A stretch of DNA of 64,000 nt from Gammaproteobacteria bacterium. Lineage in GTDB: Bacteria > Pseudomonadota > Gammaproteobacteria > Eutrophobiales > Eutrophobiaceae. The position numbers were made by a program, and so were the translations under genes. The notes below the pieces were generated by a model. The model searched no databases and had not been told where the DNA came from. It saw nothing but the letters and a program-made list of their open reading frames with translations. The stretch covers positions 2,480,091 through 2,544,090 of the forward strand of contig OZ242169.1 of the NCBI GenBank assembly GCA_965205405.1. The letters are read 5' to 3'. Below, one piece after another: positions 10,495-24,915 of this stretch. Within the stretch, counting starts at the first letter, position 1. Every line of letters begins with the position of its first letter.

Positions 10495-10613
10495 GTAATC
10501 AATAGCTGTGTAGTCGAATAGATATTCAGAAACTCCAGTTAACTCCTCCCCCACTTCACCAATCACGCTGTTATGGTTCCAAAGGTAACTCCATGGTTGC
10601 GTAGATAACGTCG

Positions 10614-11693
10614 CTAAAATGAATTTTCTTTCACATAATCATCAAGGTTCTGCAGATATTTATGTCTATCCTCTTCCGAAATCCAGGCTGATTCAAATGC
10701 ATTACTAATAAGCTGGACGACTTCATCTATTGAATAGTCACCGTGTCGCTGTACTTCCGATAGCGTATTATTTAGATAGCGACTGGCGAACTCCGACGGA
10801 TCGTCTGTGTTCACTGAAACCAGTAGGTTCAAATCAAGCATCTCACGAATACCCTCAACTCGACGAGGTCCTGGATCTGAGGGCCTCCAGGTTGGGCACA
10901 TAGTCAGTGGTATCCGGTTATCCTGGACCGCTGAAATTAATTTCTGATCATCCAGTACTTGCAACCCGTGATCAATTCGTTCTACTTTCAGGATGTCTAG
11001 ACATTGGCGAATGTGATTTATGGAATTAGGTTGATCACAATCACAATGTGATGTCAAATGATAGCCTTCCTCTCGCGCTCGCTTGAATACTTTTTCAAAC
11101 TTTAGTGGGAAGTCGTGTACTTCATAGTTATCCAGACCGACAGCGTTTATTTCAGGCTTAAAGGGTTTAGCAATATCCAGTATTTCCATACTTGATTCTG
11201 CACTATGATCACGCTGAAAATTCATTATCCAATTGGATTCTATTCCGAAATCTCGCTTACCGTCTTGCCTTCCACGATTGAGACCAGTAAAAAAATTCCT
11301 AAATTCAACGCCACGACTGGTATGTGCTTGCGTATCAAACATCATTTCTACGTAAACAATATTTTCTTTTCGGCATTTTTCAAGAAAAGCATAGGTGAGT
11401 TCATAGAAATCTTGTTCTTTCTGCAATACACGTATGCAATTTTCGTGATATTTTAAGAAATTATCTAATGGCGGCTCCCCATAATCTTGAGCTGCCCATA
11501 CTTCTTTTTCATTCTGAAAAGGAATATCAATTTTATTACGTTCTGCAAACTCCAGTAGCATAGAGGGTTCTACACATCCTTCAATATGAACATGTAATTC
11601 CGCCTTTGGCATACTCGCAATAAATTCAGCAAAGTTTTTTATCATGTTTATCTTTTCCAATACCACTTCATTTCCGTGACAGATTGTGAGCAC
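10614..11693 (-). CDS. Adenosine/adenine-deaminase-family metal-dependent aminohydrolase (true start possibly the internal Met at 11645)
   Basis: HVHIEG metal-binding motif near the N-terminus (KAELHVHIEGCVEP) and an SVNTDDP motif near the C-terminus, as in adenosine deaminases. It overlaps the pta stop codon. Confidence 0.7.
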   Translation of the reverse strand: MLTICHGNEVVLEKINMIKNFAEFIASMPKAELHVHIEGCVEPSMLLEFAERNKIDIPFQNEKEVWAAQDYGEPPLDNFLKYHENCIRVLQKEQDFYELTYAFLEKCRKENIVYVEMMFDTQAHTSRGVEFRNFFTGLNRGRQDGKRDFGIESNWIMNFQRDHSAESSMEILDIAKPFKPEINAVGLDNYEVHDFPLKFEKVFKRAREEGYHLTSHCDCDQPNSINHIRQCLDILKVERIDHGLQVLDDQKLISAVQDNRIPLTMCPTWRPSDPGPRRVEGIREMLDLNLLVSVNTDDPSEFASRYLNNTLSEVQRHGDYSIDEVVQLISNAFESAWISEEDRHKYLQNLDDYVKENSF

Positions 11694-12646
11694 TAAGCCA
11701 GAAAGGCCGTGATAACAGCTATATCAAGAATGTCTTTAGCCGTACACCCTCTGGACAAGCCCATCCAGGGTTTCGCCAAGCCCTGTAATAATGGTCCGAG
11801 GGCCGTTGCACCGCCGATCCTTTCTGTTATTTTATATGCGATATTGCCGGAAGATAGATCTGGGAAAATAAATACATTTGCCTTACCTGCAACCGCCGAT
11901 TCTTCCAATTTCAACTTCGCAACTTCTGGATCAAATGCAGCGTCAAACTGAAGTTCGCCATCAATATGTAAGGCAGGTCGTCGTTGCCTGGCTATATCCA
12001 GGGCTTTTCTCACTTTAACCACATGAGCATGTTCAGTACTGCCCTTAGTAGAAAAAGACAATAAGGCAACTCGTGCCTCTTCCCCCGTAAGCACTAAATG
12101 GTTTTCGGCACTATCAATGGCAATGCAAGCCAACTGCTCGGCATCGGGATTTGGTACTACCCCGCAATCTGCGTAGGTCATAACACGATCCTTTAGTTCC
12201 ATTAGAAACATACTGGAAAGTAAATTTTTCCCGTCCGCCAGGCCTATTCCTCGAAGACCAGCCCGGACCACGTCGGCTGTAGTAGCAACCGAACCGGCAA
12301 CGCCTCCATCTGCATAACCAATATTTACCAATACGGCGGCAAGTAATAATGGATTACTGTTCAATTCAAGTGCCGCTTGCTCGACTTTAATACCTTTCGT
12401 GGCTTGTAGTTGAGAATACACATCTATACAACGTACATACCAATCATCTCTATCAGTGCGATGCTCAAATACTTCAATATCATGCATTTTCACTCGCCCT
12501 TGCCTGATAAATAATGCAGTACCGTAATTACCCCTATTGAACTCCAGGGCTGCATGCATGACGCGAGGATCTTCCGATTCTGGAAAAATAATACGCTTAG
12601 GTGCTTGCCTGGCTATTTTCCGGATAAACTCAAGTACCTGTGCCAT
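11693..12646 (-). CDS. pta: Phosphate acetyltransferase (short PTA_PTB-type)
   Basis: 317 aa. PTA/PTB family pattern (RIIFPESEDPRVMHAALE ... GYADGGVAGSVATTADVVRAGL). Confidence 0.75.
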   Translation of the reverse strand: MAQVLEFIRKIARQAPKRIIFPESEDPRVMHAALEFNRGNYGTALFIRQGRVKMHDIEVFEHRTDRDDWYVRCIDVYSQLQATKGIKVEQAALELNSNPLLLAAVLVNIGYADGGVAGSVATTADVVRAGLRGIGLADGKNLLSSMFLMELKDRVMTYADCGVVPNPDAEQLACIAIDSAENHLVLTGEEARVALLSFSTKGSTEHAHVVKVRKALDIARQRRPALHIDGELQFDAAFDPEVAKLKLEESAVAGKANVFIFPDLSSGNIAYKITERIGGATALGPLLQGLAKPWMGLSRGCTAKDILDIAVITAFLA

Positions 12647-12692
12647 ACATACCCTAGCCCCGTACTAAATGTTGGCCCATACGTTCTCGTTG

Positions 12693-14123
12693 TCAAGAAT
12701 AACTATCCAATACCTCTCGGAATATTTCACGCATGTCATTGATTTCCGATTTCTCAATAACAAAGGGTGGCGCTACTAATGCCGCATCTCCCGTCGTTTT
12801 GACATGCACGCCAGCATCAAACAGTCTCTTTTGAAAGTTGTGACCACGCCTTCCAGGAGTACCATCAACTGCAACATCGAATGCGGCCAACATGCCATAT
12901 CCTCGAATATCCGTCACCATCGGATGGTCTTGTAGAGAGAAAATTGCATCCAGAAAATAATCAGATAAATCTTTGGCTCTCTGAAAAAGATTTTCCTTTT
13001 CAAAAATATCCAGCGTTGCAAGCCCGGCAGCACAGGCTGCAGGATGACCTGAATACGTATATCCATGAAACATCTCAACAACATTTTCAGAGCAACTATT
13101 GATAACAGTATCATAGATATTGTCATGTACTGCCACACCAGACATTGGCTGGGCAGCATTGGTCATTGCTTTTGCCATGGTAATAATATCGGGAGTGACA
13201 CCAAATTCTTGTGATGCAAATGCAGAGCCGGTTCGACCGAAACCGGTAATTACCTCATCGAAAACTAATATAATATCGTGTTCGTCACAGATTTCACGTA
13301 AGCGCTGCAAATATCCTTCTGGTGGAACGATCACACCCGTCGAACCAGCAATCGGCTCAACGAAACAAGCAGAGATTCGATTCGCACCATACAATTGAAC
13401 AGCGCGTAACAGATCATTAGCCAACTCTTCTCCACCTTCCTTGGGTTGACCCTTAATGAACTTCTGATCAGGTGATAATGTGCTTCGCATATGTGTCACG
13501 TTTGGTAATACGCCAGTGAAGGCCTCCCTGTTTTTGGCAATACCGCTCAGCGCTGTACCACCTATATTGACACCGTGATAAGCACGTTCGCGCGAAACAA
13601 ATATATTTCTCTGTGCCTCTCCTCTGGCAAAGTTATACGCCATGACAATTTTCATTGCTGTATCAACAGCTTCTGATCCAGAATTTCCATAGAAAATATG
13701 GTTAAGTGGATTCGGAGTTAATGCAGCAATACGCTTGGCCAACTCAAATGACTTTGGCTGTCCCCGTAAAAAGGGTGCCGTAAAATCCAACTGCCGGAGT
13801 TGTTCATGTACTGCAGCCGTAATTTCAGGACGGCAATGGCCACATGCGACGGCAAACAAACCTGAAGATCCATCAATCAGCCTTTCACCTTTATTGTTCC
13901 AAAGATATATTCCCTCAGCCCCGGTAATTATCCTGGGATCCTGCTTGAAGGATTTGTTATCAGTAAAGGGCATCCAGTGATTTTCCAGATCGGTACTGGA
14001 TATATCGATTGGTTGTACCTGGCCATTATTTTCTGGCATATTGAGCAGGATGTCTGCGACTGTATTAACCATTTTCTTCACCTGTATAAGCTGTTCAAAA
14101 TAATCAATAATGCTATTTGCCAT
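12693..14123 (-). CDS. Class-III (omega) aminotransferase, candidate taurine-pyruvate aminotransferase (Tpa-like)
   Basis: About 476 aa from MANSIIDYF. Class-III fold pattern (HWMPF..., GHCRPEITAAV, PLP-Lys region DEVITGFGRTG). Sits between pta and the Xsc-like gene. Confidence 0.75.
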   Translation of the reverse strand: MANSIIDYFEQLIQVKKMVNTVADILLNMPENNGQVQPIDISSTDLENHWMPFTDNKSFKQDPRIITGAEGIYLWNNKGERLIDGSSGLFAVACGHCRPEITAAVHEQLRQLDFTAPFLRGQPKSFELAKRIAALTPNPLNHIFYGNSGSEAVDTAMKIVMAYNFARGEAQRNIFVSRERAYHGVNIGGTALSGIAKNREAFTGVLPNVTHMRSTLSPDQKFIKGQPKEGGEELANDLLRAVQLYGANRISACFVEPIAGSTGVIVPPEGYLQRLREICDEHDIILVFDEVITGFGRTGSAFASQEFGVTPDIITMAKAMTNAAQPMSGVAVHDNIYDTVINSCSENVVEMFHGYTYSGHPAACAAGLATLDIFEKENLFQRAKDLSDYFLDAIFSLQDHPMVTDIRGYGMLAAFDVAVDGTPGRRGHNFQKRLFDAGVHVKTTGDAALVAPPFVIEKSEINDMREIFREVLDSYS

Positions 14124-14165
14124 CAGTATGTTACGTATGTATTTGACACTCACATAGAGCCAGAA

Positions 14166-14316
14166 ATGAGTAAGCGATCGCACCAGCTGATGTGGGAGCA
14201 GTATCTCGAGAAATACGATAGTACTTACTTATCAATGGTTTGTTGATGAAGGTTATCTGGTTAGTAGAGAGAGACAAGGCTACTTTGTTAGACCGACAAT
14301 ATTAAAGACTCGCCCG
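14166..14316 (+). pseudogene. Decayed fragment of a second MocR/TauR-like regulator gene, divergent from the aminotransferase
   Basis: DNA similarity to the intact gene at 9004. The segment 14152-14225 matches 8990-9063, including the shared upstream AGAGCCAGAAATGAG and MS.R.HQLMW. The segment 14238-14316 matches about 9205-9290 (VDEGYLISRERQGYFV region). The intervening ~150 bp is deleted and the frame is broken. Confidence 0.5.
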
Positions 14317-14524
14317 CTACTATATACCGGAATTCCTTAATTACTGGCTCTGAATACACTTCGAAACTGGCTCTATTTTCAAGTGCAATCCTTCTCTAAA
14401 GTTACCGACTTGTTAATATGAATATGCAAATGATTCGATTGGAATGAATAGTGCCCAGAATACACAGTTAGCGTTCTCGCTTGTATTCTGAACACATTCC
14501 CCTACCTTTCAGGAGTTAAAGATT

Positions 14525-16279
14525 ATGACACGAATGACGCCCAGTGAAGCGTTTGTAGAAACCATGGTTGCCAATGGGGTAACCAAAATTTTTGGAATCA
14601 TGGGATCGGCCTTTATGGATGCTATGGATATCTTTGAGCCTGCCGGGATTGATTTTGTGCCCGTTGTACATGAACAAGGGGCTGCCCACATGGCTGATGG
14701 CTATTCCCGTGTCAGTGGCAAACATGGCGTGTGTATCGGCCAGAACGGACCCGGGATAAGTAACTGTGTCACGGCCATCGCAGCCGCCTATTGGGCTCAT
14801 TCACCGGTGGTTATAATCACCCCTGAAACCGGTACCATGGGGATTGGCCTGGGAGGGTTCCAGGAAGCCAACCAGTTACCCATGTTTCAAGAGTTCACCA
14901 AGTACCAGGGACATGTCTGCAATCCTAATCGTATGGCGGAAATTACCGGCCGATGCTTTGAGCGAGCCCTGTCGGAGTTGGGCCCTACTCAGTTGAACAT
15001 ACCACGTGATTATTTCTACGGTGATATCGATGTGGAAATCCCCCAACCCCGGACTCTGGATAGGGGACCAGGGGGTGAAAAAAGTCTGAATGACGCTGCA
15101 GAATTACTGGCAAAAGCGAAATTCCCCGTCATCATTTCCGGCGGTGGCGTGGTTATGGCTGATGCTGTTCAAGAGTGTAAAGCCCTGGCTGAGCGCCTGG
15201 GTGCACCGGTGGTAAATAGCTATTTACATAACGACTCCTTCCCCGCCGGTCATCCGCTTTGGTGTGGCCCCCTGGGTTATCAGGGCTCCAAAGCCGGTAT
15301 GAAACTCATCAGTAGAGCCGACGTGGTATTGGCGCTTGGTACACGGCTTGGTCCATTTGGTACTCTGGCCCAGTATGGGATGGATTATTGGCCAGAGGAC
15401 GCCAGGATCATCCAGGTCGATGCCGATCATAAAATGCTCGGCCTGGTAAAAGAAATTTCAGTGGGGATCTGTGGTGACGCAAAAGCCGCAGTAATCGCCA
15501 TACACTCTCGTCTGAATGATGGCTCTCTGGCTTGTGATGCGAATAAGGAACAACGTGCAACTGAGATAAGTCAGGAGAAACAGGCGTGGGAAAAAGAACT
15601 TGATGAATGGATTCATGAGAAGGACGACTTCAGCCTCAAAATGATTGAAGAAGCCGTAGGTAAATTGCTCCATCCTCGCCAGGTATTACGAGAACTGGAA
15701 ACAGCCATGCCTGCAGATGTTATGGTATCGACCGATATCGGTAACATTTGTTCTGTATCCAATAGCTATTTACGATTTGAACGGCCACGCAGTATGTTTG
15801 CAGCCATGAGTTTCGGTAACTGCGGTTATGCATTTCCGACCATTATTGGTGCTAAATTGGCTGCCATGGATCGTCCGGCTGTCTCATATGTAGGCGATGG
15901 TGCCTGGGGTATGAGTATGGGCGAAACTATGACCTGCGTACGTGAAGGTATTCCTGTTACGTCGGTCGTCTTCCACAATAAACAATGGGGGGCGGAGAAG
16001 AAAAACCAGGTGGATTTTTACGGCCGCCGTTTTGTGGCCGGCGAACTGGACAATCAGAGTTTTGCTGAAATTGGACGGGCCATGGGTGCGGAAGGTGTCG
16101 TTGTTGACAAGTTGGAAGATGTCGGTCCTGCCTTCACCAATGCAATCAATTTACAGATGAATGATGGTATAACAACAGTACTTGAAATCATGTGTACCCG
16201 CGAACTGGGTGACCCCTTCCGCCGTGATGCATTGTCAACACCGGTACGTTATCTTGAAAAATACAAAGATTATGTTTAG
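14525..16279 (+). CDS. xsc: ThDP-dependent enzyme of the acetolactate-synthase superfamily; best fit is sulfoacetaldehyde acetyltransferase (Xsc)
   Basis: 584 aa. The N-terminus (MTRMTPSEAFVETMVANGVTKIFGIMGSAFMDAMD ... IGQNGPGISN ... GGFQE ... NIPRD) matches my recollection of Xsc. Pta and a class-III aminotransferase are adjacent, as in known xsc-pta/tpa loci. Confidence 0.65.
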   Translation: MTRMTPSEAFVETMVANGVTKIFGIMGSAFMDAMDIFEPAGIDFVPVVHEQGAAHMADGYSRVSGKHGVCIGQNGPGISNCVTAIAAAYWAHSPVVIITPETGTMGIGLGGFQEANQLPMFQEFTKYQGHVCNPNRMAEITGRCFERALSELGPTQLNIPRDYFYGDIDVEIPQPRTLDRGPGGEKSLNDAAELLAKAKFPVIISGGGVVMADAVQECKALAERLGAPVVNSYLHNDSFPAGHPLWCGPLGYQGSKAGMKLISRADVVLALGTRLGPFGTLAQYGMDYWPEDARIIQVDADHKMLGLVKEISVGICGDAKAAVIAIHSRLNDGSLACDANKEQRATEISQEKQAWEKELDEWIHEKDDFSLKMIEEAVGKLLHPRQVLRELETAMPADVMVSTDIGNICSVSNSYLRFERPRSMFAAMSFGNCGYAFPTIIGAKLAAMDRPAVSYVGDGAWGMSMGETMTCVREGIPVTSVVFHNKQWGAEKKNQVDFYGRRFVAGELDNQSFAEIGRAMGAEGVVVDKLEDVGPAFTNAINLQMNDGITTVLEIMCTRELGDPFRRDALSTPVRYLEKYKDYV

Positions 16280-17307
16280 GCTCCCAGGCCCAATTTACCC
16301 AGTGCCTTTTTATAAGCCACACTACAAACATCCGCATGGGTGTGCCGCTCATTTCTTATATTCAGAAGATATTCCTTTGGGTGAAGCTTCTCAATAATGG
16401 CTTTATCTTCTTTATTGACTTGCAACATGTAATCAATGTCGGCACGCGGGTCGTTATGCTGTGTGACGGCAATCTGAAAAAGCGTACATGAATAAGCAGA
16501 ATTGGGGGTTGCAACGTCATGCACTGAATATCTAACGCTACCATCCTGCTCCTCATCAATCAGTAATGAGCAAAAAGGTAATGTCAGTTCGGATATTAGA
16601 GTGAAATCTCTGGCAACTCCATGTACTGCTGAATGGGTTGTTTTAACACGCCTGAGCACATGGGCCACCGTTTGGTCGACTTCAAACTCCGGGACAGAGG
16701 AGGCTTCCGGATTTCCAAACGATTCTCTATGGACAATTGAAAGATGTGCAGGATCGTTAAAATTCTCCACATGTCTCGCAGCTGATGCTTCCCAGACCTC
16801 TGAATTAATACTCACTTTGGTATCCGGGTGATTCATAATTCCTTCGTTTTCAAGAATCGGCCATTCTGGTAGAGGCAAAATTGGATCAGGCTTCAGGCAA
16901 ACCCAGAGTAAACCGAAACGCTCCTCACTCCGGTATGTGATAAGGTTGAAACTACTGGCGATAGGCGCCGTCTGATCTTGCCGTGCAGGAATTTTGCTAC
17001 AGGTCCCATCTGCTTCAAATTCCAGCCCATGATAAGGGCAGACAATTTTGTTTTCTTCCACACATCCCATGCTGAGCGGCGCCCCTCGATGGGGACAAAT
17101 ATCCCGAGCCACGGTAATTCCTTTTCTGGTACGATAAATTACCAGTGGGATATCCATTAATATAAAGCGAACCGGTTTGTCTTTAATATCATCAATTAAG
17201 GCCACAGGATGACACATTGCTGCCAGAATTAGCCAGTCACTTCTTGTAAACTCAGTTTGATCGGGAAAGTCCGAATCATCTTTAACAAAATTTTTCGGTA
17301 GAAACAT
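16276..17307 (-). CDS. Rieske [2Fe-2S] non-heme-iron oxygenase alpha subunit, short VanA/TsaM-like type (paralog 1)
   Basis: 343 aa. Rieske motif CPHRGAPLS...CPYHG. No beta subunit or reductase gene adjacent. Confidence 0.75.
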   Translation of the reverse strand: MFLPKNFVKDDSDFPDQTEFTRSDWLILAAMCHPVALIDDIKDKPVRFILMDIPLVIYRTRKGITVARDICPHRGAPLSMGCVEENKIVCPYHGLEFEADGTCSKIPARQDQTAPIASSFNLITYRSEERFGLLWVCLKPDPILPLPEWPILENEGIMNHPDTKVSINSEVWEASAARHVENFNDPAHLSIVHRESFGNPEASSVPEFEVDQTVAHVLRRVKTTHSAVHGVARDFTLISELTLPFCSLLIDEEQDGSVRYSVHDVATPNSAYSCTLFQIAVTQHNDPRADIDYMLQVNKEDKAIIEKLHPKEYLLNIRNERHTHADVCSVAYKKALGKLGLGA

Positions 17308-17337
17308 AACTTAATTCCTTAAATTCTATAAGCAAAT

Positions 17338-18663
17338 CTACGAATGCCTGATTTCTACTATCATATTCGCAAAAGGTTTTAGTCCTGAATAAAAAATTAC
17401 GATGGCAATGGGTATAAATATCGCACCAAACAAGGACAAAGAGTAATGAACCTGAAGTGTGTTTTGAAACACAGTATCAGTAAAAAAAGCTACCAGGAAT
17501 GGGCCCACACCCGCCCCGATCAGTACCAAAATAAAAAGATAAATCGCCAGTATCTGCCCACGAAATTCATTGGGTGTAATCTGAGTGATACATGCCATAC
17601 CAACACCAATATTGGCTCCCAAAAAAAACATTGTCGGACCCAGTAAACACAATACAGTTATAGAATTTGGTGCCAGTGGGGTCACAATAAAAATCAGTAA
17701 TCCAAGACAAGCATAGACGGACACCCTTAGATATGCATCAGCAAAACCTCTTTTTATAAGCCAATCTGCCCATATACCGCCACACATTGTGCCGCCGCCA
17801 CCAAAGAATAAAACAACCAGACCAAATGCTATTCCTACCTCTCCAGGTGTCCAGGAAAAAATACGAATAAATAGTGTCGGGGTCCAGGCTAATAGACCAT
17901 ATCCCAACATCGCGGTAGTCGAATAACCAAAAATGATGGTTAAGTAAACTCGCAGGTGTGATGCCATAAAACGAAAGGTTTCTCTCAATGGTAATAATAT
18001 TGGAGCACCTTCTCCTTTATTTAGCCTATCGTGTCGCAAAGGTTCTTTGACAGACAGCATTACCAGGGCGGCAACCAATACGCCGGGCAAACCAACGATT
18101 ATTAAAGTCGTTTGCCAGGGTTGCAGTACACCTACAAGAGGTAATTCCAGCGCCGTGCTTTTGGCAACGGCCTGTACAACAAGACCACCCAGGATAAAAG
18201 ATAGTCCCCCTCCGACGTATGGACCCATCGCCAGAAGGCTGATAGGTTTACTGCGTTTATCCCGTGGAAAATAGTCAGACACCATTGAATACCCACAAGG
18301 TGACAAGCAAGCCTCACCTACCCCCACGCCAATACGGGCCAGGAAAAACATCCAGAAATTTTTTGCAAGACCGCAACAGGCCGTCATCAGACTCCAGGCC
18401 GTAATACCTATTGCAATAATGGTGCGGCGATTTTTGGAATCAGCCAGGCGTCCAATCGGAATTCCCATAAACGCATAGAAAATAGCAAAGGCAAAGCCGT
18501 GTAAAATACTTATTTGTGTATCCGTAATACTGAGGTCTGCTTTTATGGGTTCTATGAGTAAACTAATAATCTGCCGGTCAATAAACGAGACAACATTGGC
18601 AACCATTAAGACAGCGGCAACATACCAGGCGTATATCGGATTTGGGTAGTTATCGTTCGCCAT
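17338..18663 (-). CDS. MFS transporter
   Basis: About 441 aa from the internal Met (MANDNYPN...), 12 predicted TM segments, MFS-type G-rich loop motifs. Confidence 0.75.
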   Translation of the reverse strand: MANDNYPNPIYAWYVAAVLMVANVVSFIDRQIISLLIEPIKADLSITDTQISILHGFAFAIFYAFMGIPIGRLADSKNRRTIIAIGITAWSLMTACCGLAKNFWMFFLARIGVGVGEACLSPCGYSMVSDYFPRDKRSKPISLLAMGPYVGGGLSFILGGLVVQAVAKSTALELPLVGVLQPWQTTLIIVGLPGVLVAALVMLSVKEPLRHDRLNKGEGAPILLPLRETFRFMASHLRVYLTIIFGYSTTAMLGYGLLAWTPTLFIRIFSWTPGEVGIAFGLVVLFFGGGGTMCGGIWADWLIKRGFADAYLRVSVYACLGLLIFIVTPLAPNSITVLCLLGPTMFFLGANIGVGMACITQITPNEFRGQILAIYLFILVLIGAGVGPFLVAFFTDTVFQNTLQVHYSLSLFGAIFIPIAIVIFYSGLKPFANMIVEIRHS

Positions 18664-18794
18664 ATTTGAGACAGTTGCCAATTCGTTCACAATAAACTGC
18701 GGAAAAAATAATAATGTTAGACCTGGATAAAACGCATAATAGAAAAAAAGGGTGGACAATCCACCCTATTTATCACTTAGTCGAATGCATACAA

Positions 18795-21074
18795 TCAGAA
18801 TCGATAGGAAAGCGTACCCCCAAATTGACGCGGAGGCCCACCAGGCAGCACCATATGTTCGGCAATAAATGTAAATCCGTCATTTATCCATTCTTCATCT
18901 GCAAGATTCTTAACCCATAGTCTTACATCCCAGTTATCGTCAGAACCAGTGTAACCAATGCTTGCATTGAGTATCCAAAAAGCATCTTGTGATTCGTAAT
19001 CCGTATTTGTATCAGTAAAAAATTGTTTATCTCTCCAGTGCGGATTGAGTGTAAATGCCAGTTGACCACCCTGTGCCATCGGTACTGTATAGGTTATAAA
19101 AGTATTTGATGTCAGTGCCGGCGTTTTCGCGGTCGTATTACCTGTGACATCACCACCCCCAAACCCAAGAGCTAAACTGGTACTTACAAATTCAGATTCT
19201 GTCCAGGCGAGTGCTGAATAGATATTCAACTGTTCCATTGGTTGCCAATCGACCTCAACTTCAGCGCCATATCCCTCGACATCGCCAAAGTTGGCCAATA
19301 ACGATATACTACCCAGAACGCCACGAGCACCAGGAATCTCAACGAATCCGATTTTGTCTGTATAATCGTAGTAGTATCCTGACGCATTCACGCGCAAGGT
19401 GTCATCCAGAAAATCACCTTTAAAACCAGCTTCGAAATTACTCAAGAATTCAGGGTCGGTAACTTCAAATTCGTCGTTAGCCAACGCACCGCCGTTGAAA
19501 TCTCCACCCCTGAAGCTTCGAGACCACGTAAACCACAGATTTACATCATCATTCAAAGCGTATTGAAGTGAAATTCTGGCACTGGGTTCAAACCACTCTT
19601 CTTTTTGATTATCTTCGTTTGCCAAAATCGTGTGTGGCAAACTAAACCACAGTTGTTTATCAATTAACGTATTATCGAACGTGGGGTTGGGGACGATGCT
19701 ACCGGCACGTATCGCACCTACTCGTTCATCCCACGTTAACCTCAGGCCCGCCGTCGCCGTAAAACGATCGTTAAAGTCATATGAAACTTCGCCGAAAATT
19801 GCAAAATTTTGTTGCTCTATAATATTCAGTCGTCCTGCACTCGTACCACCAAATGCGAGGATGTAGTTAGAACGAAAGTATGTGAGTTCATCGTCATAAT
19901 AAAAGCCGCCCAGGACCCAGTTCCATGGCCCATCACTGTTGGATGCAAATCTAATTTCCGTACTCCATTGTTCATGTTCGTCGTCAAAGTTCGCATTTAA
20001 TACTCCTTGTGGAGAGCCATCAGTTTCATTCAGTTCTTGGCGGACATTAGACTGGAAGGCGGTAATAATCGTAGTTGTAAAGCTATCAAATTCGTAATCC
20101 ACGAATAACGCGGTTTGAAACAATTCCATTTTCTGAAACCCATCGGCACCAGAATTAATTGTATAGGGATCAGCATCAGCCACACCACCTAACAGGTTCA
20201 CACAGCTCGTACCCGGGCGCCCCCTCAACGGATCAGAACATGAAAATCCGAAATCAAATGGGAATGCGCCAAGACCCAGCGCCTTTTGTGGAGTATCTTC
20301 TCCATCAAGTTCACTGTATGTAATTGCTAATCTGGTGTTTAAACGGTCGGTTGGCTGCCAGGATATCTGCCCCCTTAGGGCGCCCCACTCGTGGCCACCA
20401 AGATTACTATCAGCAGGCGATGCAGGATTACCATTATCATACAAGCCGTCGAAGCTGCGATAGGTAGCGCTTAGTCGTGCAGCAATGTTTTCACTGATCG
20501 AGAAACCCACTGCACCTTCAAAATCATACTCATCTCCTTCGGCCGCCGTAACATCTACGTAACCATTGGTTTCCCCGCCTATCTCGGGTTTAACCGACAC
20601 GTAGTTAATCAGACCGCCTGTAGTATTTCTTCCCCACAATGTTCCTTGTGGGCCTTTCAGCACTTCAACCCGGTCCAAGTCGAATACCAATCCAGCAGTA
20701 CCGTAATTAGAACCAAAAACGACACCATCTTGATAAATCGCCGTCGCGTTTCCGGCGCTGACCTGGAAATCATCAACACCTACACCACGCAAACTATATT
20801 CTGTCTTGCCGAAACCGGTACCTGCAGTGGTTAAACCAGGTATCGAATCCAAGAGTTCTCTGCCATTCGCAATCGCACGCTTTTTGATGGTATCACCAGT
20901 AATCGCTGTCACAGCAATAGGCACCTCTTGAAGACTTTGCTCTCGCTTTTGCGCTGTTACGATAACTTCTTCTAACACTCCCTGCGCAGAAGCCAGTCCC
21001 GTCCAAAGCATCAAGATACCAAGTACGCCGAATAAGCTAATAATTTCTTTGAATCTGATCAAAATGAACTGCAT
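18795..21074 (-). CDS. TonB-dependent receptor
   Basis: Start at the ATG at 21074 preceded by GGGGAG. Signal peptide, plug (EEVIVTAQKREQSLQEVPIAV), C-terminal ...TLSYRF barrel terminus. Confidence 0.85.
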   Translation of the reverse strand: MQFILIRFKEIISLFGVLGILMLWTGLASAQGVLEEVIVTAQKREQSLQEVPIAVTAITGDTIKKRAIANGRELLDSIPGLTTAGTGFGKTEYSLRGVGVDDFQVSAGNATAIYQDGVVFGSNYGTAGLVFDLDRVEVLKGPQGTLWGRNTTGGLINYVSVKPEIGGETNGYVDVTAAEGDEYDFEGAVGFSISENIAARLSATYRSFDGLYDNGNPASPADSNLGGHEWGALRGQISWQPTDRLNTRLAITYSELDGEDTPQKALGLGAFPFDFGFSCSDPLRGRPGTSCVNLLGGVADADPYTINSGADGFQKMELFQTALFVDYEFDSFTTTIITAFQSNVRQELNETDGSPQGVLNANFDDEHEQWSTEIRFASNSDGPWNWVLGGFYYDDELTYFRSNYILAFGGTSAGRLNIIEQQNFAIFGEVSYDFNDRFTATAGLRLTWDERVGAIRAGSIVPNPTFDNTLIDKQLWFSLPHTILANEDNQKEEWFEPSARISLQYALNDDVNLWFTWSRSFRGGDFNGGALANDEFEVTDPEFLSNFEAGFKGDFLDDTLRVNASGYYYDYTDKIGFVEIPGARGVLGSISLLANFGDVEGYGAEVEVDWQPMEQLNIYSALAWTESEFVSTSLALGFGGGDVTGNTTAKTPALTSNTFITYTVPMAQGGQLAFTLNPHWRDKQFFTDTNTDYESQDAFWILNASIGYTGSDDNWDVRLWVKNLADEEWINDGFTFIAEHMVLPGGPPRQFGGTLSYRF

Positions 21075-21316
21075 CTTTGTCTCCCCTCTTGGCTTGGCAA
21101 TAACTAGTTTTGAGATCGTTGCAACCTCACAACGTACAATTTTTCGAACCATAAAATATAATGCAGCTAAAGCCATCTAAGTAGTACCAAACAACCTTTA
21201 ACCTTAGTACCACGAATTATTTCCCACATTTTTAGTGGATGCCTCTCTGTTTCAGGTCAAAAACTAAGCTATAAGGCGTTGATATTAATAGTAATAATTT
21301 ATCAGTTCATCCTAAT

Positions 21317-22399
21317 TTATGCGACCTGCTTGTTCGCTGGATCTTTTATATCTTTCCTTATGCATTTAAGTAACTCTTCAGGACTTTTTTCTGCCGCCGC
21401 TGCCAGCTGCCTTAACCATTTACGATAGTGGATCGATATTTTATCCGACGGCACGGAGATCTCTTGAGATGGGCCTGGGATTTCCTGGGGATACTGGCTT
21501 TCGATAACAGGTTTGTCCTCGGCCAGAACTATCTCCTGGAATGCCAAATGCGGTGGATCCGGTTTGTCCATATCATGGTCTCGACAGGTAAATGAAAAAA
21601 TACGGCATGTTTTGGCATCGATTGGTGCTGCACACATCCACAGGATCGCATTGTTCCCCTTTCCCGCTTTGGTATTCAGTAAAAATTCAACGTTGACCGT
21701 AAACGGCATGGTGATGTGATAAACAGTCTTTCCCATTAAGGCAACATCCGGTACAGGCATTTCTTCCGGTGCCTCAAAGTGAAAAACCAGTTGTCCGTTT
21801 ACCCTGTCAATATAGGGCGGTGTTACATCCGTTATGTTGGGGTCAAACAAGGTATTAGGATGAATATAGGGAAAATGCGCCAGGTCAACATAATTTTCCA
21901 GTCGTCTAGCTGCCGATGTCTGCCAGTTGTAAGGAACTATTGGGACTGCTTTGAATTTCTCGTCGGTATATCCGGGACACAGAGGGATCTGGGTCTCTGT
22001 ACTTGAATCTAATCGTACCCATATCAAATCATATTTTACTTGTGTTTCATACTGAGGGATTTTAGCCACGGTTGGGATTTCCATGCCTGGGCATGCCGGT
22101 ATATCCACACATCGACCTTGACCATTGTAGGCCCAACCATGATACCGGCATCGCATTTTCCCATTATCGACAAATCCCAGTGCGAGCGAGGCCGAACGAT
22201 GACAACACCTTTCACTCAGCGCAACAATGCCCTCATCCAGTTCGACTATCACCAGGGATTCACCAAGAAGCTTCACTTTAATCGGACCTTTACCACTCGC
22301 ATCTTCGGAGTAAAATTCTTCCAGGGTACAAACTGGAAACCAAAAGTGTCGCCAGGTTGCCTCGCTGATGAAATCTGGATTTATGGTTTGATTACTCAA
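21317..22399 (-). CDS. Rieske [2Fe-2S] non-heme-iron oxygenase alpha subunit (paralog 2, more divergent)
   Basis: 360 aa. Rieske motif CCHRSASLA...CRYHGW. Confidence 0.75.
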   Translation of the reverse strand: MSNQTINPDFISEATWRHFWFPVCTLEEFYSEDASGKGPIKVKLLGESLVIVELDEGIVALSERCCHRSASLALGFVDNGKMRCRYHGWAYNGQGRCVDIPACPGMEIPTVAKIPQYETQVKYDLIWVRLDSSTETQIPLCPGYTDEKFKAVPIVPYNWQTSAARRLENYVDLAHFPYIHPNTLFDPNITDVTPPYIDRVNGQLVFHFEAPEEMPVPDVALMGKTVYHITMPFTVNVEFLLNTKAGKGNNAILWMCAAPIDAKTCRIFSFTCRDHDMDKPDPPHLAFQEIVLAEDKPVIESQYPQEIPGPSQEISVPSDKISIHYRKWLRQLAAAAEKSPEELLKCIRKDIKDPANKQVA

Positions 22400-22660
22400 A
22401 ATAGTTTCTCCTTAAAGATGTTCGAATTTGTCACTCACTAGATGTAGATCCAATTCATGAGAACCGTTATACCCAATATTCATAAGAAAATATTCATTAT
22501 TTCAGTTGCTTACGAGGGAGACGTAAATGATGATATTCCGCTCCTTCAAAGACAGTTGTACAGTGCATCAATGTGGCGCCTGCATTCGGACTAAAATTAA
22601 TATAGTATTTTTCTTAAACTTGATTAATAAATCCTTTTCTATTACCAAATTGGAACAATT

Positions 22661-23716
22661 ATGTTTTTACCCAGTGATCACTCCAAAAACATATCAACGC
22701 TACCTCGTAATTGTAGCTTGAATGAAAACGATTGGAATATCCTTGCCGGCCTCTGGCATCCGGTAGTCTTCTCTAAAGACATCGGTCATAAACCTGTCGC
22801 GGCCAAACTGCTCGATGTTCCTCTGGTAGTCTACCGCACCACCGCAGGCATCACAGTTGCCAAGGATCTTTGCGTCCACCGTGGTACCCCCATCAGCTTG
22901 GGCTGGATGAAGGATGATATGATCGTCTGCCCCATGCATGCCCTGCACTATGATGGCGAGGGAAGATGCCGACGTATCCCTTCGGTTGAAGATAAAAACC
23001 GCCCTATCTCAGATCGCTTGCAGCTCATTACCTTCCGAACAATAGAACGTTACGGAATTGTCTGGGTTTGTCTGAGTAATGACGAACCTGCAATTCCCCT
23101 TCCCGAATGGCCTGAGCTGGAAGACGAGCGATTCATGACTGATGTTAACATCAAGAAGATGAGCATCGACGAAATATGGAACTGTTCAGCTTCCCGGCAC
23201 ACTGAAAACTTTAATGACGCAGCCCATTTATCCTGGGTCCATGCTGATTCGTTTGGCAACCGGGATAAGCCGGAAGTGCACGACATCGAAGTCGATATGA
23301 CTGTGCCACATGTATTAAAGCGTGACCGCCGCCTGATGGAAGAGTCCCTGGGACAGGGGCGCTTATCACACTTTATCGCGGAATTGACCCTGCCATTCTC
23401 TTCCGCCCTCGTGGAGAAAGATGGCGATCAAAATCTAGCCTATGGCATATATGATGCCGCCTGTCCAATGTCTGCAAACGAAACCCGCGTATTTCAAATC
23501 ATCTGGTCGGGATTCCCCGATAGCTACCCGCACTCCCATGTACAATTATGGGAGCAAGTGAACCGGGAGGATATCGTTCTGGTATCACGCCAATGTCCGG
23601 AAGAGGTGCCACTCGACGTGCGGGAAGAGATTCACATTCCTGCTGACACTGTTTCATTAGCTTATAGAAAAGCCATGAAAGATCTGGGCCTGGGGGCTCC
23701 ACAGTTTACGCAATAG
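22661..23716 (+). CDS. Rieske [2Fe-2S] non-heme-iron oxygenase alpha subunit (paralog 3, clearly related to the 16276-17307 protein)
   Basis: 351 aa. Rieske motif CVHRGTPIS...CPMHA. Colinear similarity to paralog 1 (LPLPEWP, ENFND.AHLS.VH). Confidence 0.75.
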   Translation: MFLPSDHSKNISTLPRNCSLNENDWNILAGLWHPVVFSKDIGHKPVAAKLLDVPLVVYRTTAGITVAKDLCVHRGTPISLGWMKDDMIVCPMHALHYDGEGRCRRIPSVEDKNRPISDRLQLITFRTIERYGIVWVCLSNDEPAIPLPEWPELEDERFMTDVNIKKMSIDEIWNCSASRHTENFNDAAHLSWVHADSFGNRDKPEVHDIEVDMTVPHVLKRDRRLMEESLGQGRLSHFIAELTLPFSSALVEKDGDQNLAYGIYDAACPMSANETRVFQIIWSGFPDSYPHSHVQLWEQVNREDIVLVSRQCPEEVPLDVREEIHIPADTVSLAYRKAMKDLGLGAPQFTQ

Positions 23717-23748
23717 CAGTAGACTTGTTCGTTATTGAGTGGTTTAAC

Positions 23749-24915
23749 TTACCACGATTCTGTTGCCTTAGATCCTTCAATGGCGGCCAGCTGTTTTACT
23801 ACAATAATTATGATGAACGCAGTAAGCAGTTCGCCGGCAAAGGTAAAACCACCCAGGGCCATGGTATTCCAGTTATCCATAATCAAACCACCTAGCGCCG
23901 GCGCAACAGCAATGGCGCCCAGAAAAGATGTGGAGGCGATGGATGCCCAACGACCTTCCTGATCCAGGCGCGCCGCGGTACCGAGCAGATACGCTACGGT
24001 AAAGAAATAACTGATGTTGTTTAACAAAACGGAGATGGTATAGACAAAGGGATCAGGCACCGTACAAATCAAAAACCAAGTGCCGCCATTGACCAATACG
24101 CCGATCACCACGGGAACAATTCTGCCAAAACGCAGATTCAGCCAGGCAGCCAGCAATCCACCCAACATGCCGAAGATGAAACCTGCTCCCAATATCCCAC
24201 TGACTTGCTCAACTGCTAAACCGGCGGTTTCACCCATAATAGCCAAGTAAGCCCAGGGCGCGCTGACAACCATTATCCAATTTAAAATGGCAAATATGGT
24301 CAAGCAACCTAAAATAAAATGAGGTAATCGTATCTTCTTATTATCCGCTTGCTTTTCTTTCACCGTGTTGGGGAAACAACATAGTAGCGGCAAAGTACAT
24401 AAGGTTAATAAGGCCAGCACGCCGTAACCGCCGCCAACACCGTAACCTTTTACGGCATAGCCTGCCAGCCAAACCATGATTGCCATGATCATGGCATTGA
24501 ATGTTTTTACCAGGGCAAACATGCGATCGGGAGCCGCAGCGCCGGCGATCACCGCGCCCCCTGCGGCTAGCGCGGCGCCTGCAAACAAGCCGGCAAAAAA
24601 GCGAACAAATAACAACACCGCGTACGACGGACCCTGGGAACTGATGATATGTGCCATCACCGCCAGCAGACAGCCTACAACAGCAATCCTGCGTTTGGGG
24701 AGTTTGTCTATGAAAGGAGCGACGATCAGCGCAGTCAACGCGATACCGGCAAATTCCACCGAGACCAGATAACCGGCTTTGCTTGCCACCAGGGCCATAT
24801 GGTTTTTTAAGGCCTGTACAATAATTGGGGCCAGAGCCTGTGACAAATTGCCCACAAGAAAAGCACCCCATCCACTGAGAAAGATTAACCTGTTTCGGCG
24901 ATCAAGATTAAACAA
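23749..24915 (-). CDS. MFS transporter
   Basis: 388 aa, about 12 TM segments, Gly/Ala-rich helices. Confidence 0.7.
   Translation of the reverse strand: MFNLDRRNRLIFLSGWGAFLVGNLSQALAPIIVQALKNHMALVASKAGYLVSVEFAGIALTALIVAPFIDKLPKRRIAVVGCLLAVMAHIISSQGPSYAVLLFVRFFAGLFAGAALAAGGAVIAGAAAPDRMFALVKTFNAMIMAIMVWLAGYAVKGYGVGGGYGVLALLTLCTLPLLCCFPNTVKEKQADNKKIRLPHFILGCLTIFAILNWIMVVSAPWAYLAIMGETAGLAVEQVSGILGAGFIFGMLGGLLAAWLNLRFGRIVPVVIGVLVNGGTWFLICTVPDPFVYTISVLLNNISYFFTVAYLLGTAARLDQEGRWASIASTSFLGAIAVAPALGGLIMDNWNTMALGGFTFAGELLTAFIIIIVVKQLAAIEGSKATESW

Follow-up and report, generated by a model that had tools for sequence, protein, structure and literature searches.

What do three Rieske oxygenases act on when they are encoded beside genes for uptake across both membranes, and where do their electrons come from? 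We addressed these questions in a 64-kb stretch of DNA (the window) from an uncultured marine bacterium that is probably a sponge or coral symbiont. Coordinates are given in window numbering, domain calls are from Pfam, and L numbers denote loci or lineages of related MAGs that were compared with the window. As originally predicted, the cluster at 16276-24915 contains three Rieske oxygenases, two MFS transporters, and one TonB-dependent receptor, and the ORFs lie exactly as follows:

16276..17307, minus strand: Rieske1, alpha-only Rieske monooxygenase, 343 aa (Rieske and VanA_C)
17338..18759, minus strand: MFS1, inner-membrane transporter, 473 aa (MFS_1, 9.5e-41)
18795..21176, minus strand: TonB-dependent outer-membrane receptor (TBDR), 793 aa (Plug and TonB_dep_Rec_b-barrel)
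21317..22399, minus strand: Rieske2, NdmA/NdmB-like alpha-only Rieske monooxygenase, 360 aa (Rieske and VanA_C)
22661..23716, plus strand: Rieske3, alpha-only Rieske monooxygenase, 351 aa (Rieske and VanA_C)
23749..24915, minus strand: MFS2, second inner-membrane transporter, 388 aa (MFS_1, 2.7e-21)

The minus-strand operon starts with Rieske2 and continues through TBDR and MFS1 to Rieske1, whose stop codon overlaps that of xsc. Rieske3 is transcribed divergently from Rieske2, and MFS2 lies 24 bp downstream of xseA. With the start chosen in related records, TBDR would be 759 aa long; it had no specific relative among NCBIfam or PDB. MFS1 was most similar to the anion:cation-symporter (D-galactonate) subfamily (TIGR00893, 119 bits, under its cut-off). 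The expected pattern of two paralogs and one divergent member was also recovered: Rieske1 and Rieske3 were 45% identical over their full length (E 1e-108), and Rieske1 and Rieske2 were 26% identical. The proposed coupling of alpha-only Rieske monooxygenases to outer- and inner-membrane uptake stands.

We then compared the oxygenases with characterized enzymes. In phmmer searches of PDB, Rieske2 aligned nearly full length with NdmA (3.3e-91) and NdmB (2.9e-90), and its identity to them was 40-47% over the full length. Full-length alignments were also obtained for Rieske1 (SxtDIOX/GxtA, 2.6e-30; SxtT, 1.8e-29; NdmA, 1.6e-25) and Rieske3 (NdmA, 2.5e-31; SxtDIOX, 5.7e-30). By sequence comparison, the nearest characterized enzymes are NdmA/NdmB (3e-91 for Rieske2 and about 1e-25 to 1e-31 for Rieske1/3) and SxtT/GxtA (about 1e-30), so the family assignment in the original prediction needs correcting. 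Its label "VanA/TsaM-type" is valid only insofar as the Pfam VanA_C domain is shared; VanA/TsaM-like enzymes, CntA, and GbcA are much more distant, and no homology pointed to TsaM. As the original prediction proposed, the likeliest chemistry is that a scarce small molecule is demethylated or hydroxylated. DdmC reached only 1e-9 to 1e-18, with the N-terminal half alone aligned. CntA reached 1e-4 for Rieske1, and for Rieske3 it gave no match even at E<=10. The GbcA score was 25 bits against a cut-off of 670. Members of the Rieske3 family were metagenome and MAG sequences only.

NdmA and NdmB are the methylxanthine N1-/N3-demethylases of the Pseudomonas putida CBB5 caffeine pathway and work with NdmD (PDB 6ICK and 6ICL). 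Like them, the window oxygenases are alpha-only Rieske and VanA_C proteins of about 350 aa with identical metal ligands, and several paralogs share one cluster, presumably for different positions. All eight metal ligands (all Rieske ligands and the 2-His-1-Asp site) were conserved in all three proteins, in agreement with the predicted 2-His-1-carboxylate type. We also inspected the seven residues that contact caffeine in NdmA (bioRxiv 10.1101/2021.12.17.472166). The pocket of Rieske2 is Y-F-T-L-Q-V-L versus F-F-F-L-Q-V-L in NdmB; it retains the NdmB specificity pair Q/L and five of the seven NdmB pocket residues, plus a conservative F-to-Y change. The pockets of Rieske1 and Rieske3 are F-L-L-V-M-V-N and F-L-F-I-W-V-N. 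Unlike in NdmA/NdmB, F223 is Thr throughout the marine clade and F168 is Tyr in the Rieske2 orthogroup.

SxtT and GxtA (SxtDIOX), the saxitoxin C12/C11 hydroxylases (PDB 6WN3 and 6WNC; 334 aa), are likewise alpha-only, with a separate reductase that is not encoded adjacently. Among solved relatives, they rank within the first two or three for Rieske1 and Rieske3, over the full length and at about 1e-29 to 1e-30, which would fit detoxification of a toxin or alkaloid of guanidinium or purine-like type by C-H hydroxylation (saxitoxin-type chemistry), not demethylation. We consider this very unlikely: no sxt-type genes are found nearby, and GcvT-type formaldehyde-trapping genes accompany the oxygenase family in L004, L081, L089, and L091, which argues for demethylation. 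The cyanobacterial enzymes also differ in being biosynthetic, the window context being catabolic or uptake-related, and the similarity is only moderate (about 1e-30).

The original prediction had found no reductase or ferredoxin within 8 kb. This was borne out for the full 64-kb window: no partner was found by Pfam on all sizeable ORFs, by a six-frame motif scan, or by tblastn with NdmD, VanB-like, and PDR-type reductases. Two molybdopterin dehydrogenases, near 53.8 and 61.8 kb, carry the window's only 2Fe-2S motifs in their small subunits. The orphan state of the oxygenases is therefore real, but it is ordinary, being common to about 40 related loci. The exceptions in this clade were L089, where such a cluster is flanked by a 321-aa PDR/VanB-type reductase, and L005, with a reductase 56% identical to it about 9.7 kb from the cluster. 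The partner type in relatives is thus a standard PDR/VanB-type reductase, and free-living Ndm clusters contain NdmD or VanB-like reductases. These cases suggest that the window oxygenases probably receive electrons from a reductase encoded elsewhere in the genome. The window cluster differs from the Ndm system in lacking NdmD (Rieske-FNR-Fd) and NdmC/NdmE, in its coupling to a TonB-dependent receptor and MFS permeases, in having taurine rather than xanthine/formaldehyde genes as neighbors, and in its host, an uncultured marine MAG lineage with no caffeine link.

Next, we examined the contexts of related modules. In sponge/coral-type MAGs, such modules were located in purine-to-urate catabolic loci. 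The MAG of the closest relative carries a paralogous module (Rieske2-like, Rieske3-like, TBDR, and MFS genes) between XDH-XdhC-PuuD urate oxidase and adenosine deaminase-GcvT-Amidohydro_1. The L081 island, which L091 resembles, contains eight such Rieske genes, three of them 39-48% identical to Rieske3, with the PbuX xanthine permease, adenosine deaminase, two GcvT genes, and OHCU decarboxylase. The multi-Rieske/GcvT/TBDR/MFS islands of L081, L091, L089, and L004 share with the window the same three or four Rieske subfamilies, TBDR, MFS, and a usually missing reductase. They carry GcvT, AraC regulators, PbuX, adenosine deaminase, XDH, urate oxidase, and OHCU decarboxylase, whereas the window cluster has none of these inside and adjoins taurine genes. 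In the window, we found no XDH ortholog, XdhC, uricase, PbuX, GcvT, OHCU decarboxylase, or AraC gene; the missing purine-catabolic set was counted against a purine substrate.

In at least eight species-level MAGs, a homolog 62-63% identical to Rieske2 ends a ligU-ligK-ligJ-pobA-ligA-ligB operon. This position and the VanA_C domain would suit VanA analogs that O-demethylate methoxylated aromatic acids (vanillate- or methylgallate-like), with ring cleavage encoded elsewhere. Such a role seems improbable. LigB and other ring-cleavage genes were not found in the window, the LigAB-context loci lack Rieske1/3-type partners and the TBDR-MFS arrangement, and DdmC, the only named solved O-demethylase among the matches, is far more distant than NdmA/B. 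The class-IA systems VanAB, TsaMB, and DdmABC share the VanA_C catalytic domain, and their PDR/VanB-type partner recurs in L089, but similarity is much lower and no reductase is adjacent in the window. Enzymes 80-84% identical to the purine-context ones close a protocatechuate 4,5-cleavage operon; thus, clade context does not uniformly predict substrate. Of the seven pocket positions, only one (F to Y) separates Rieske2 from its cousins in purine and LigAB contexts, no arginine is gained, and the positions are otherwise alike across purine, LigAB, and taurine contexts.

Our tentatively favored reading is that a methylated purine-type heterocycle is imported and then oxidatively N-demethylated or hydroxylated by enzymes that receive their electrons in trans. 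The TonB-dependent receptor and two MFS permeases would bring in a small methylated metabolite, which the three catalytically intact monooxygenases of the NdmA/NdmB-SxtT/GxtA branch would hydroxylate, most likely at N-methyl groups, from which formaldehyde would leave. The likeliest substrates would be methylated N-heterocycles of the purine type, derived from the host animal or from nucleic-acid turnover, and each oxygenase may take a different position or congener. Electrons would pass from NAD(P)H to the oxygenases through a PDR/VanB-type FNR-[2Fe-2S] reductase, probably shared with other Rieske clusters. This reading draws on the match of Rieske2 to NdmA/NdmB with its pocket residues and metal ligands, on Rieske1 and Rieske3 having NdmA and the saxitoxin hydroxylases as their closest solved relatives, and on the purine-locus modules of the closest relative's MAG, L081, and L091 together with an adenosine-deaminase-family gene in the window's own island. 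Counted against it were the pocket identity across contexts, the modest identity of Rieske2 to NdmA/B, and its dispensability in L092.

The predicted low-GC block was confirmed: its GC content is 45.5%, whereas the window averages 50.5% and the flanks 52.6/56.5%. It actually spans 16 kb (9004-24915) and takes in a taurine module (9004..16279, 45.3% GC) comprising the following genes:

9004-10494, plus strand: MocR-type regulator (MocR-type domain architecture)
10614-11693, minus strand: adenosine-deaminase-family gene (TIGR01430, 282 bits; cut-off 217)
11693-12646, minus strand: Pta
12693-14183, minus strand: class-III aminotransferase, putative taurine-pyruvate aminotransferase Tpa by context (omega-aminotransferase model NF052567, 576 bits versus 500)
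14525-16279, plus strand: Xsc (TIGR03457, 1028 bits; cut-off 676)

The taurine module and Rieske cluster are alike in GC and GC3; GC3 of island genes was 0.37-0.53 versus 0.65-0.66 for lipA, xseA, and guaB. We compared five closely related orthologous clusters (window, L003, L028, L092, and L093). They adjoin taurine genes (Xsc and Tpa), with Xsc adjacent wherever the contig extends far enough and abutting Rieske1 in the window, L003, and L092. The position next to the sulfonate module, noted in the original prediction, proved more relevant than expected: a SorAB-type sulfite dehydrogenase lies within the operon in four of the five clusters (L003, L028, L092, and L093). There, sorB-sorA (cytochrome c and sulfite-oxidase-type) occupies the Rieske2-Rieske3 intergenic position, with or without a fourth Rieske gene; it reads in the same direction as the next Rieske gene, 8-44 bp away. 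That these four orthologs are set among taurine/sulfite genes, not purine genes, was counted against a purine substrate. TBDR (77-78% identical, same position) and MFS1 (75-76%) have orthologs in L003 and L092; MFS2 (72-74%) adjoins Rieske3 in L003, L092, and L093, preceded by an MBL-fold hydrolase and a DUF2783 gene. Rieske2 is the variable component and is missing from L092.

The main rival explanation is that the 16-kb island forms one pathway for a sulfonate-linked substrate, which we judge possible, though unlikely. TBDR and MFS would import a taurine derivative, for example N-methyl-, N,N-dimethyl-, or N,N,N-trimethyltaurine, or a heteroaromatic that bears taurine or a sulfonate; the oxygenases would demethylate or desulfonate it for Tpa, Xsc, and Pta, and sulfite would be oxidized by SorAB in relatives. 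The single compositional island and the xsc and sorBA arrangements are consistent with this; the island has no other taurine transporter, MFS1 resembles anion:cation symporters, and stepwise demethylation would suit three or four oxygenases. However, aliphatic sulfonates and quaternary amines are not substrates of any characterized relative (CntA and GbcA being very distant), and the Rieske2 pocket has gained no arginine. The window itself lacks sorAB, and the five lineages are so closely related that the adjacency may be one ancestral arrangement. In the window and L003, the candidate MocR operator is also limited to taurine genes. In the sponge gammaproteobacterial symbiont "Ca. Taurinisymbion ianthellae," taurine is imported by TauABC and dissimilated through Tpa-Xsc-Pta, with sulfite oxidation by AprAB/Sat (PMC10356861). 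The window resembles this system in Xsc, Pta, the aminotransferase at the Tpa position, and the MocR-type regulator, and its relatives have a sulfite dehydrogenase, but no Rieske oxygenases or TBDR are described with the symbiont's system.

Of the five clusters, that of the window is the smallest, and guaA and a biotin carboxylase are frameshifted in the assembly. A decaying, non-functional remnant from which sorAB, a fourth Rieske gene, the MBL/DUF2783 genes, and any regulator would have disappeared is nevertheless hardly probable: all six ORFs are full length with every metal ligand intact, the region is 99.88% identical across two independently assembled contigs with 0 indels, and the frameshifts elsewhere occur in homopolymer runs and have the appearance of assembly artifacts.

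Finally, non-coding elements were examined:

14343..14376, plus strand: candidate MocR (TauR-like) operator in the tpa-xsc intergenic region, direct repeat ACTGGCTCT-N14-ACTGGCTCT
18749..18767, minus strand: hairpin (8-bp stem, 5 G-C pairs) followed by TTTTTTT, just past the TBDR stop codon
21178..21225: conserved block of non-coding sequence ahead of the TBDR gene, direct repeat TAGTACCA ... TAGTACCA
22400..22660: 261-bp region between the divergent genes, presumed to hold the promoters of the Rieske2-TBDR-MFS1-Rieske1 operon and of Rieske3

The candidate operator footprint was identical at 17 of 17 positions with the L003 xsc-mocR intergenic region; its 9-mer repeat was found twice and nowhere else (0.26 expected). 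Further copies of CTGGCTCTAT lie at 14154-14163 and 8992-9001 (both minus strand), and all perfect 10-mer matches fell within the taurine module, with 0 in the Rieske cluster. A search for a regulatory motif common to both found none. The divergent region had no Rfam match and no candidate MocR-operator motif, and no riboswitch or regulator pointed to the cluster's ligand. The conserved block matched the L003 Rieske2-TBDR intergenic region at 38 of 47 positions. The hairpin, judged from its consensus match alone, is a possible attenuator or partial terminator within the operon.

All six open reading frames (ORFs) of the cluster lie exactly where the original prediction had placed them, and Pfam annotation identified them as follows.

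16276-17307, minus strand: Rieske1, oxygenase alpha subunit of 343 aa (Rieske + VanA_C)
17338-18759, minus strand: MFS1, transporter (MFS_1)
18795-21176, minus strand: TBDR, TonB-dependent receptor (Plug + TonB barrel)
21317-22399, minus strand: Rieske2, oxygenase alpha subunit of 360 aa (Rieske + VanA_C)
22661-23716, plus strand: Rieske3, oxygenase alpha subunit of 351 aa (Rieske + VanA_C)
23749-24915, minus strand: MFS2, transporter (MFS_1), 24 bp downstream of xseA

Rieske2, TBDR, MFS1, and Rieske1 form an operon in this order with gaps of 140, 35, and 30 bp, and Rieske3 diverges from it across a 261-bp Rieske2-Rieske3 intergenic region. TBDR consists of an N-terminal plug (PF07715, 1.5e-17) and a 22-strand barrel (PF00593, 2.1e-34), and its similarity to solved structures (siderophore and colicin receptors) was confined to the plug domain. 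A terminator consensus scan found one plausible hairpin, after the TBDR gene, and footprinting against the orthologous cluster L003 revealed a conserved 47-nt block upstream of the same gene. The promoter consensus scan was uninformative, as shuffled sequence yielded more promoter-like sites than the real one. No Rfam family was detected in the window at the gathering threshold or in the 16.0-25.2 kb interval at E<=1. The cluster had been described as low in GC, and a content of 45.5% bears this out; the low-GC block spans 9004-24915, the taurine module (45.3%) included. The GC3 of genes in this block was 0.37-0.53, compared with 0.65-0.66 for the flanking lipA, xseA, and guaB.

We compared the three oxygenases with each other and with solved structures. 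Rieske1 shares 45% identity with Rieske3 along the full length of both proteins (E 1e-108) and 26% with Rieske2. Rieske2 matched NdmA (3.3e-91) and NdmB (2.9e-90) with residues 16-340 of 360 aligned, followed by SxtT/GxtA at ~1e-30 and all others at 1e-17 or weaker. NdmA and NdmB are methylxanthine N1- and N3-demethylases, respectively; Rieske2 is 40-44% identical to them in a multiple alignment, clusters with their clades in a neighbor-joining tree, and is likewise an alpha-only protein of ~350 aa with a VanA_C catalytic domain. The oxygenase fold is already fixed by the sequence identity to the solved NdmA/B structures. Rieske1 was nearest to GxtA/SxtT (~1e-30; best 2.6e-30), then to NdmA (1.6e-25), and Rieske3 matched NdmA (2.5e-31), GxtA (5.7e-30), and NdmB. 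The similarity of Rieske1 (2.6e-30) and Rieske3 (5.7e-30) to SxtT/GxtA was moderate and fell short of a close relationship, and no sxt genes were found by Pfam annotation of the sizeable ORFs in the window; toxin hydroxylation, the function on which these matches bear, is highly improbable. DdmC aligned with the N-terminal half only, at 1e-9 to 1e-18, whereas the values for NdmA/B were 1e-25 to 1e-91. Membership in the quaternary-amine oxygenases was not supported by the scores with CntA and GbcA: CntA matched Rieske1 at 1.3e-4 and gave no match for Rieske3 at E<=10, and the GbcA model NF058607 matched Rieske1 only, with 25 bits against a cut-off of 670. The VanA_C (PF19112) matches of 8e-11, 1.7e-21, and 6.5e-12 were all over the gathering score. 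The label VanA/TsaM-type, used in the original prediction, consequently holds at the level of Pfam domains but not for the nearest characterized relatives, which are NdmA/B and SxtT/GxtA. Judged by sequence, the three oxygenases belong to the Ndm/Sxt branch.

Loss of the 2-His-1-carboxylate iron motif had been raised as a concern; in the alignment, the bridging Asp and the 2-His-1-Asp ligands are conserved in all three proteins. The four Rieske ligands (C-x-H...C-x-x-H) are conserved as well in Rieske1, Rieske2, and Rieske3, so that all eight metal positions are kept, and there is very little probability that the cluster is a non-functional remnant. Residue numbering follows the orthologs of NdmA and NdmB from Pseudomonas sp. 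S31 (locus L063). In NdmA, caffeine is contacted by F168, F174, F223, L248, N282, V285, and F286, and NdmB carries Q and L at two specificity positions, N282 and F286 in NdmA (bioRxiv 10.1101/2021.12.17.472166). At the seven contact positions, Rieske2 has Y-F-T-L-Q-V-L, of which five are those of NdmB, with F168Y a conservative replacement and F223T a change. Homologs in purine, LigAB, and other contexts carry the same pocket signature, which therefore does not define the substrate. The corresponding residues are F-L-L-V-M-V-N in Rieske1 and F-L-F-I-W-V-N in Rieske3. Furthermore, 41 positions are fixed differently in the clade of the window-type Rieske2, including F168Y and W264S (NdmA numbering), with no new pocket arginine among them.

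The absence of a reductase or ferredoxin, claimed for the surroundings of the cluster, was borne out for the whole 64 kb. The remaining sizeable ORFs of the window were annotated with Pfam, all six frames were scanned for motifs of four kinds (plant-type ferredoxin, FNR NAD-binding, RxYS, and Rieske), and reductases of related loci (NdmD, VanB-like, and PDR-type) served as tblastn queries. NdmD found matches solely in the three oxygenase genes, at their Rieske domains, and NdmC solely at their catalytic domains; the FNR and ferredoxin parts of NdmD were unmatched in the window. The only extra [2Fe-2S] motifs in the window belong to two molybdopterin dehydrogenases, in their small subunits (~53.8 and 61.8 kb). 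By contrast, the Ndm cluster has a dedicated NdmD (Rieske-FNR-[2Fe-2S]) and NdmC/NdmE, and the free-living homolog loci (L044-L066) carry an NdmC-like gene and a reductase, either NdmD-like (Rieske-FNR-Fd) or VanB-like, at most ~5 kb away. A reductase-like gene within 10 kb was found in only 1 of ~40 marine-clade loci, indicating that the orphan state is a property of the clade. The missing reductase, the headline of the original prediction, is thus real, yet not surprising.

One NCBI MAG locus (L089), with a Rieske gene 48% identical to Rieske3, carries genes for a 321-aa PDR/VanB-type reductase and an IMPDH-like protein; next to them, in divergent orientation, are an AraC gene and a cluster comprising five Rieske genes together with one MFS and one GcvT gene. 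The related locus L005 ends within a gene ~9.7 kb from its Rieske2-like gene, and the final 90 residues of the encoded protein show 56% identity to the L089 reductase; the IMPDH-like genes of two other loci (L004 and L007) are 71% identical to that of L089. By analogy with these loci, the partner of the family would be an ordinary class-IA reductase, often encoded far off and presumably shared among several Rieske loci per genome. No ortholog of the L089 reductase on the 3.47-Mb source contig or on the contigs of near relatives was among the best 120 of 6,529 matches.

Taken together, a generic mechanism of uptake and Rieske monooxygenation with a reductase in trans is very probable. The substrate would cross the outer membrane through TBDR and the inner membrane through MFS1 and MFS2, and would be monooxygenated by three substrate- or position-specific Rieske enzymes of the alpha3 type, with electrons supplied from NAD(P)H via a PDR/VanB-type reductase encoded in trans. 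The favored chemistry would be oxidative N-demethylation because of the similarity to NdmA/B and because GcvT-type formaldehyde-trapping genes accompany the family elsewhere.

Next, the relatives of Rieske2 and their contexts were considered. Proteins identical to those of the window are encoded, with unchanged gene order, by the 3.47-Mb NCBI contig and by metagenome contigs of ENA, and in a scan of species-representative genomes the nearest relatives were found only in uncultured Gamma- and Alphaproteobacteria MAGs. Judging from many of the isolate names (RHO3, APA, CAR2, Spongia_Bin9, SB0661, and Plut), the hosts would be sponges or corals. In genuine caffeine-degrading lineages (Pseudomonas sp. 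S31/S37, Paraburkholderia caffeinitolerans, and others), the homologs were 42-46% identical. In the neighbor-joining tree, the Rieske2 of the window and of L003 is sister to two subclades that are 80-84% identical mutually and only 60-63% identical to the window's Rieske2.

In one of these subclades, the contexts are of the purine type. The locus L004, in the same MAG as L003, contains in order genes for an XDH large subunit, XdhC, a PuuD urate oxidase, two phosphoribosyltransferases, a Rieske3-like protein, two AraC regulators, a Rieske2-like protein, a TBDR, an MFS transporter, an adenosine deaminase, GcvT, Amidohydro_1, an amine oxidase, and an IMPDH-like protein. An island in L081/L082 (ENA ERZ21829562 ctg254137l, 1-19645) contains eight Rieske/VanA_C genes together with one TBDR gene, two MFS genes, one AraC gene, and genes for a PbuX xanthine permease, two GcvT proteins, an adenosine deaminase, and an OHCU decarboxylase, and no reductase was found there. 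The PbuX match was above the curated cut-off, and the stop of its gene overlaps the start of a Rieske2-like gene. A resembling context was observed in L091. The L081/L082 island is followed by integrase and transposase genes. A methylated purine-type heterocycle as the substrate is the leading but tentative assignment, to which we give somewhat less than even weight.

In the other subclade, the context is aromatic, with the Rieske gene standing last in a ligU-ligK-ligJ-pobA-ligA-ligB operon. Such an NdmB-like gene ends the protocatechuate 4,5-cleavage operon in L088 (10001-11062), L006, and L008-L015, from several gammaproteobacterial MAGs, and these genes are 80-84% identical to the copies in purine-catabolic loci. 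The seven pocket residues are equal in the purine and aromatic contexts, so the context of these cousins is informative but not uniform, and since Rieske2 branches before the two contexts split, the tree does not decide the substrate. A methoxy-aromatic substrate, for which the aromatic operons would speak, is improbable, and LigB is missing from the window. The window also lacks SorAB, GcvT, AraC, XdhC, uricase, PbuX, and OHCU decarboxylase, and the two MoCo dehydrogenases that it encodes share no more than 25-32% identity with the XDHs of L004 and L005.

Other neighborhoods contributed little. That of Xan_ur_permease in 19 alphaproteobacterial loci was given little weight because the genes are convergent, not operonic, and the loci closely related, and the contexts P0010 (a mobile/defense island) and P0176 (Rhodobacteraceae) were uninformative. 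In L083-L085, a lone Rieske2-like gene (57% identical) lies within a mobile/defense island with integrase, MmeI-type restriction-modification enzyme, ThsB-TIR, ThiF, and Multi_ubiq genes.

We also investigated the direct orthologs of the cluster, which were present in four more lineages (L003, L028, L092, and L093) with component identities of 70-89%. The core comprises Rieske1, MFS1, TBDR, Rieske3, and MFS2, and xsc abuts Rieske1 wherever the contig extends that far. Among the variable parts, Rieske2 is missing in L092, and a fourth Rieske type of 339 aa is present in L092 and L093; the 339-aa subfamily and those of Rieske1 and Rieske3 are wholly uncharacterized. In all four lineages, genes for a cytochrome c and a sulfite-oxidase-type molybdoenzyme (SorBA type) replace the window's 261-bp intergenic region and are co-directional with the next Rieske gene, 8-44 bp away.

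In the adjoining taurine module of the window, Xsc scored 1028 bits with TIGR03457 (cut-off 676) and Pta matched PTA_PTB at 5.8e-98 (Pfam). The class-III aminotransferase matched the omega-aminotransferase model NF052567 (576 versus 500) and no Tpa-specific model, and is a putative Tpa by context. No TauABC or TauKLM transporter was found by Pfam annotation of the window. An adenosine-deaminase-family gene (10614-11693; TIGR01430, 282 bits versus 217) has a start that overlaps the pta stop and apparently forms one operon with tpa and pta. In a taurine operon such a gene is unexpected; it shares 34% identity with the adenosine deaminase from the Rieske island of L081. A candidate operator for MocR (TauR-like), the direct repeat ACTGGCTCT-N14-ACTGGCTCT at 14343-14376, is conserved in L003, and two further copies, CTGGCTCTAT, lie at 14154-14163 and 8992-9001. 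Every perfect copy lies either upstream of mocR or close to the promoter region of tpa-xsc. Footprinting found no copy in or near the Rieske cluster in either the window or L003, and the tpa-xsc intergenic region shared no more k-mers with the Rieske2-Rieske3 intergenic region than expected by chance. Co-regulation of the Rieske cluster with the taurine module is not supported, the candidate operator being confined to the latter.

A sulfonate-linked substrate, such as methylated taurines, is rather unlikely, though it has the sulfite dehydrogenase genes inside the operon of four relatives in its favor; regulation and enzyme features give no support. Given the operator, Rfam, and residue results, the link to taurine and sulfite is one of position and of shared operons, as seen in relatives. 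It is doubtful that the 16-kb island encodes an entire pathway, as yet undescribed, that acts on methylated derivatives of taurine or on another sulfonate from the host. In such a pathway, TBDR and the MFS transporters would import the substrate, the Ndm/Sxt-branch oxygenases would remove N-methyl groups stepwise to give taurine, and taurine would be consumed by Tpa-Xsc-Pta, with the SorAB genes kept in the relatives' operon. If so, the caffeine-demethylase branch would gain a new, non-aromatic substrate class, and missing enzymes of methyl-taurine turnover in marine animal holobionts would be identified.

The Ndm affinity and the relatives' operonic tie to sulfite oxidation are of more interest than the missing reductase. 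To our knowledge, caffeine degraders, from soil or associated with insects, have hitherto been almost the sole source of Ndm-type Rieske N-demethylases. In the literature searched, no Rieske demethylase, of the Ndm type or otherwise, was linked to symbionts of sponges or corals, to marine-bacterial methylated purines, or to the demethylation of methyl-taurine. The branch now extends to uncultured marine MAG lineages resembling sponge/coral symbionts, with up to eight genes per island, TonB-dependent uptake, and locations beside purine, protocatechuate, or taurine pathways. Chemistry and fold are already known; the novelty lies in the combination of TonB-dependent uptake, three or four oxygenase subfamilies in variable sets, a probable reductase in trans, and embedding among genes of taurine/sulfite metabolism. 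If the substrates are host-derived methylated purines or taurines, the clusters would represent an unrecognized route by which symbionts harvest nitrogen- or sulfur-rich host metabolites, and also a source of regiospecific demethylases for biocatalysis.

Several further features were observed elsewhere in the window. A dispersed family of palindromic repeats of ~87 nt (8739-8825, 26298-26384, 50817-50905, and 60592-60709) has 27-nt arms (GGATATTTGGGGTCAGAGTAAAAATAC) and a spacer of 33-35 nt, with nine arm matches versus none expected. Every copy lies between genes, and of the 93 loci only the same-species contigs L001 and L002 contain the repeat, which looks like a REP- or MITE-type element. 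The guaA gene (27962-29535) is split into two ORFs by a break near 28926, where an A-run is A6 in the window and A7 in L001, whose GuaA is intact (524 aa); the frameshift is probably an assembly indel. This gene is 97.2% identical to that of L001, with differences spaced in multiples of three, whereas identity in the flanks, the Rieske island among them, is 99.2-99.9%, suggesting a recombined allele. A biotin carboxylase gene (32723-34133), frameshifted beside T6/C4 homopolymer runs (~33786-33797), heads a CT_C_D, CT_A_B, and LamB/YcsF cluster to 36762 that is 5-oxoprolinase- or allophanate-hydrolase-like. A second low-GC (45.7%) catabolic block at 40380-49681 encodes a MalT/LuxR-type regulator, hydantoinase A, another TonB-dependent receptor, a cytosine/purine-family permease, and an S-Me-THD (DUF917-like) protein, and may be a further uptake cluster for a hydantoin or creatinine-like host metabolite. 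Between guaA and the carboxylase cluster (29716-32217) lie two divergent AAA_14/DUF4143 ATPase genes, a pair also present in L001.
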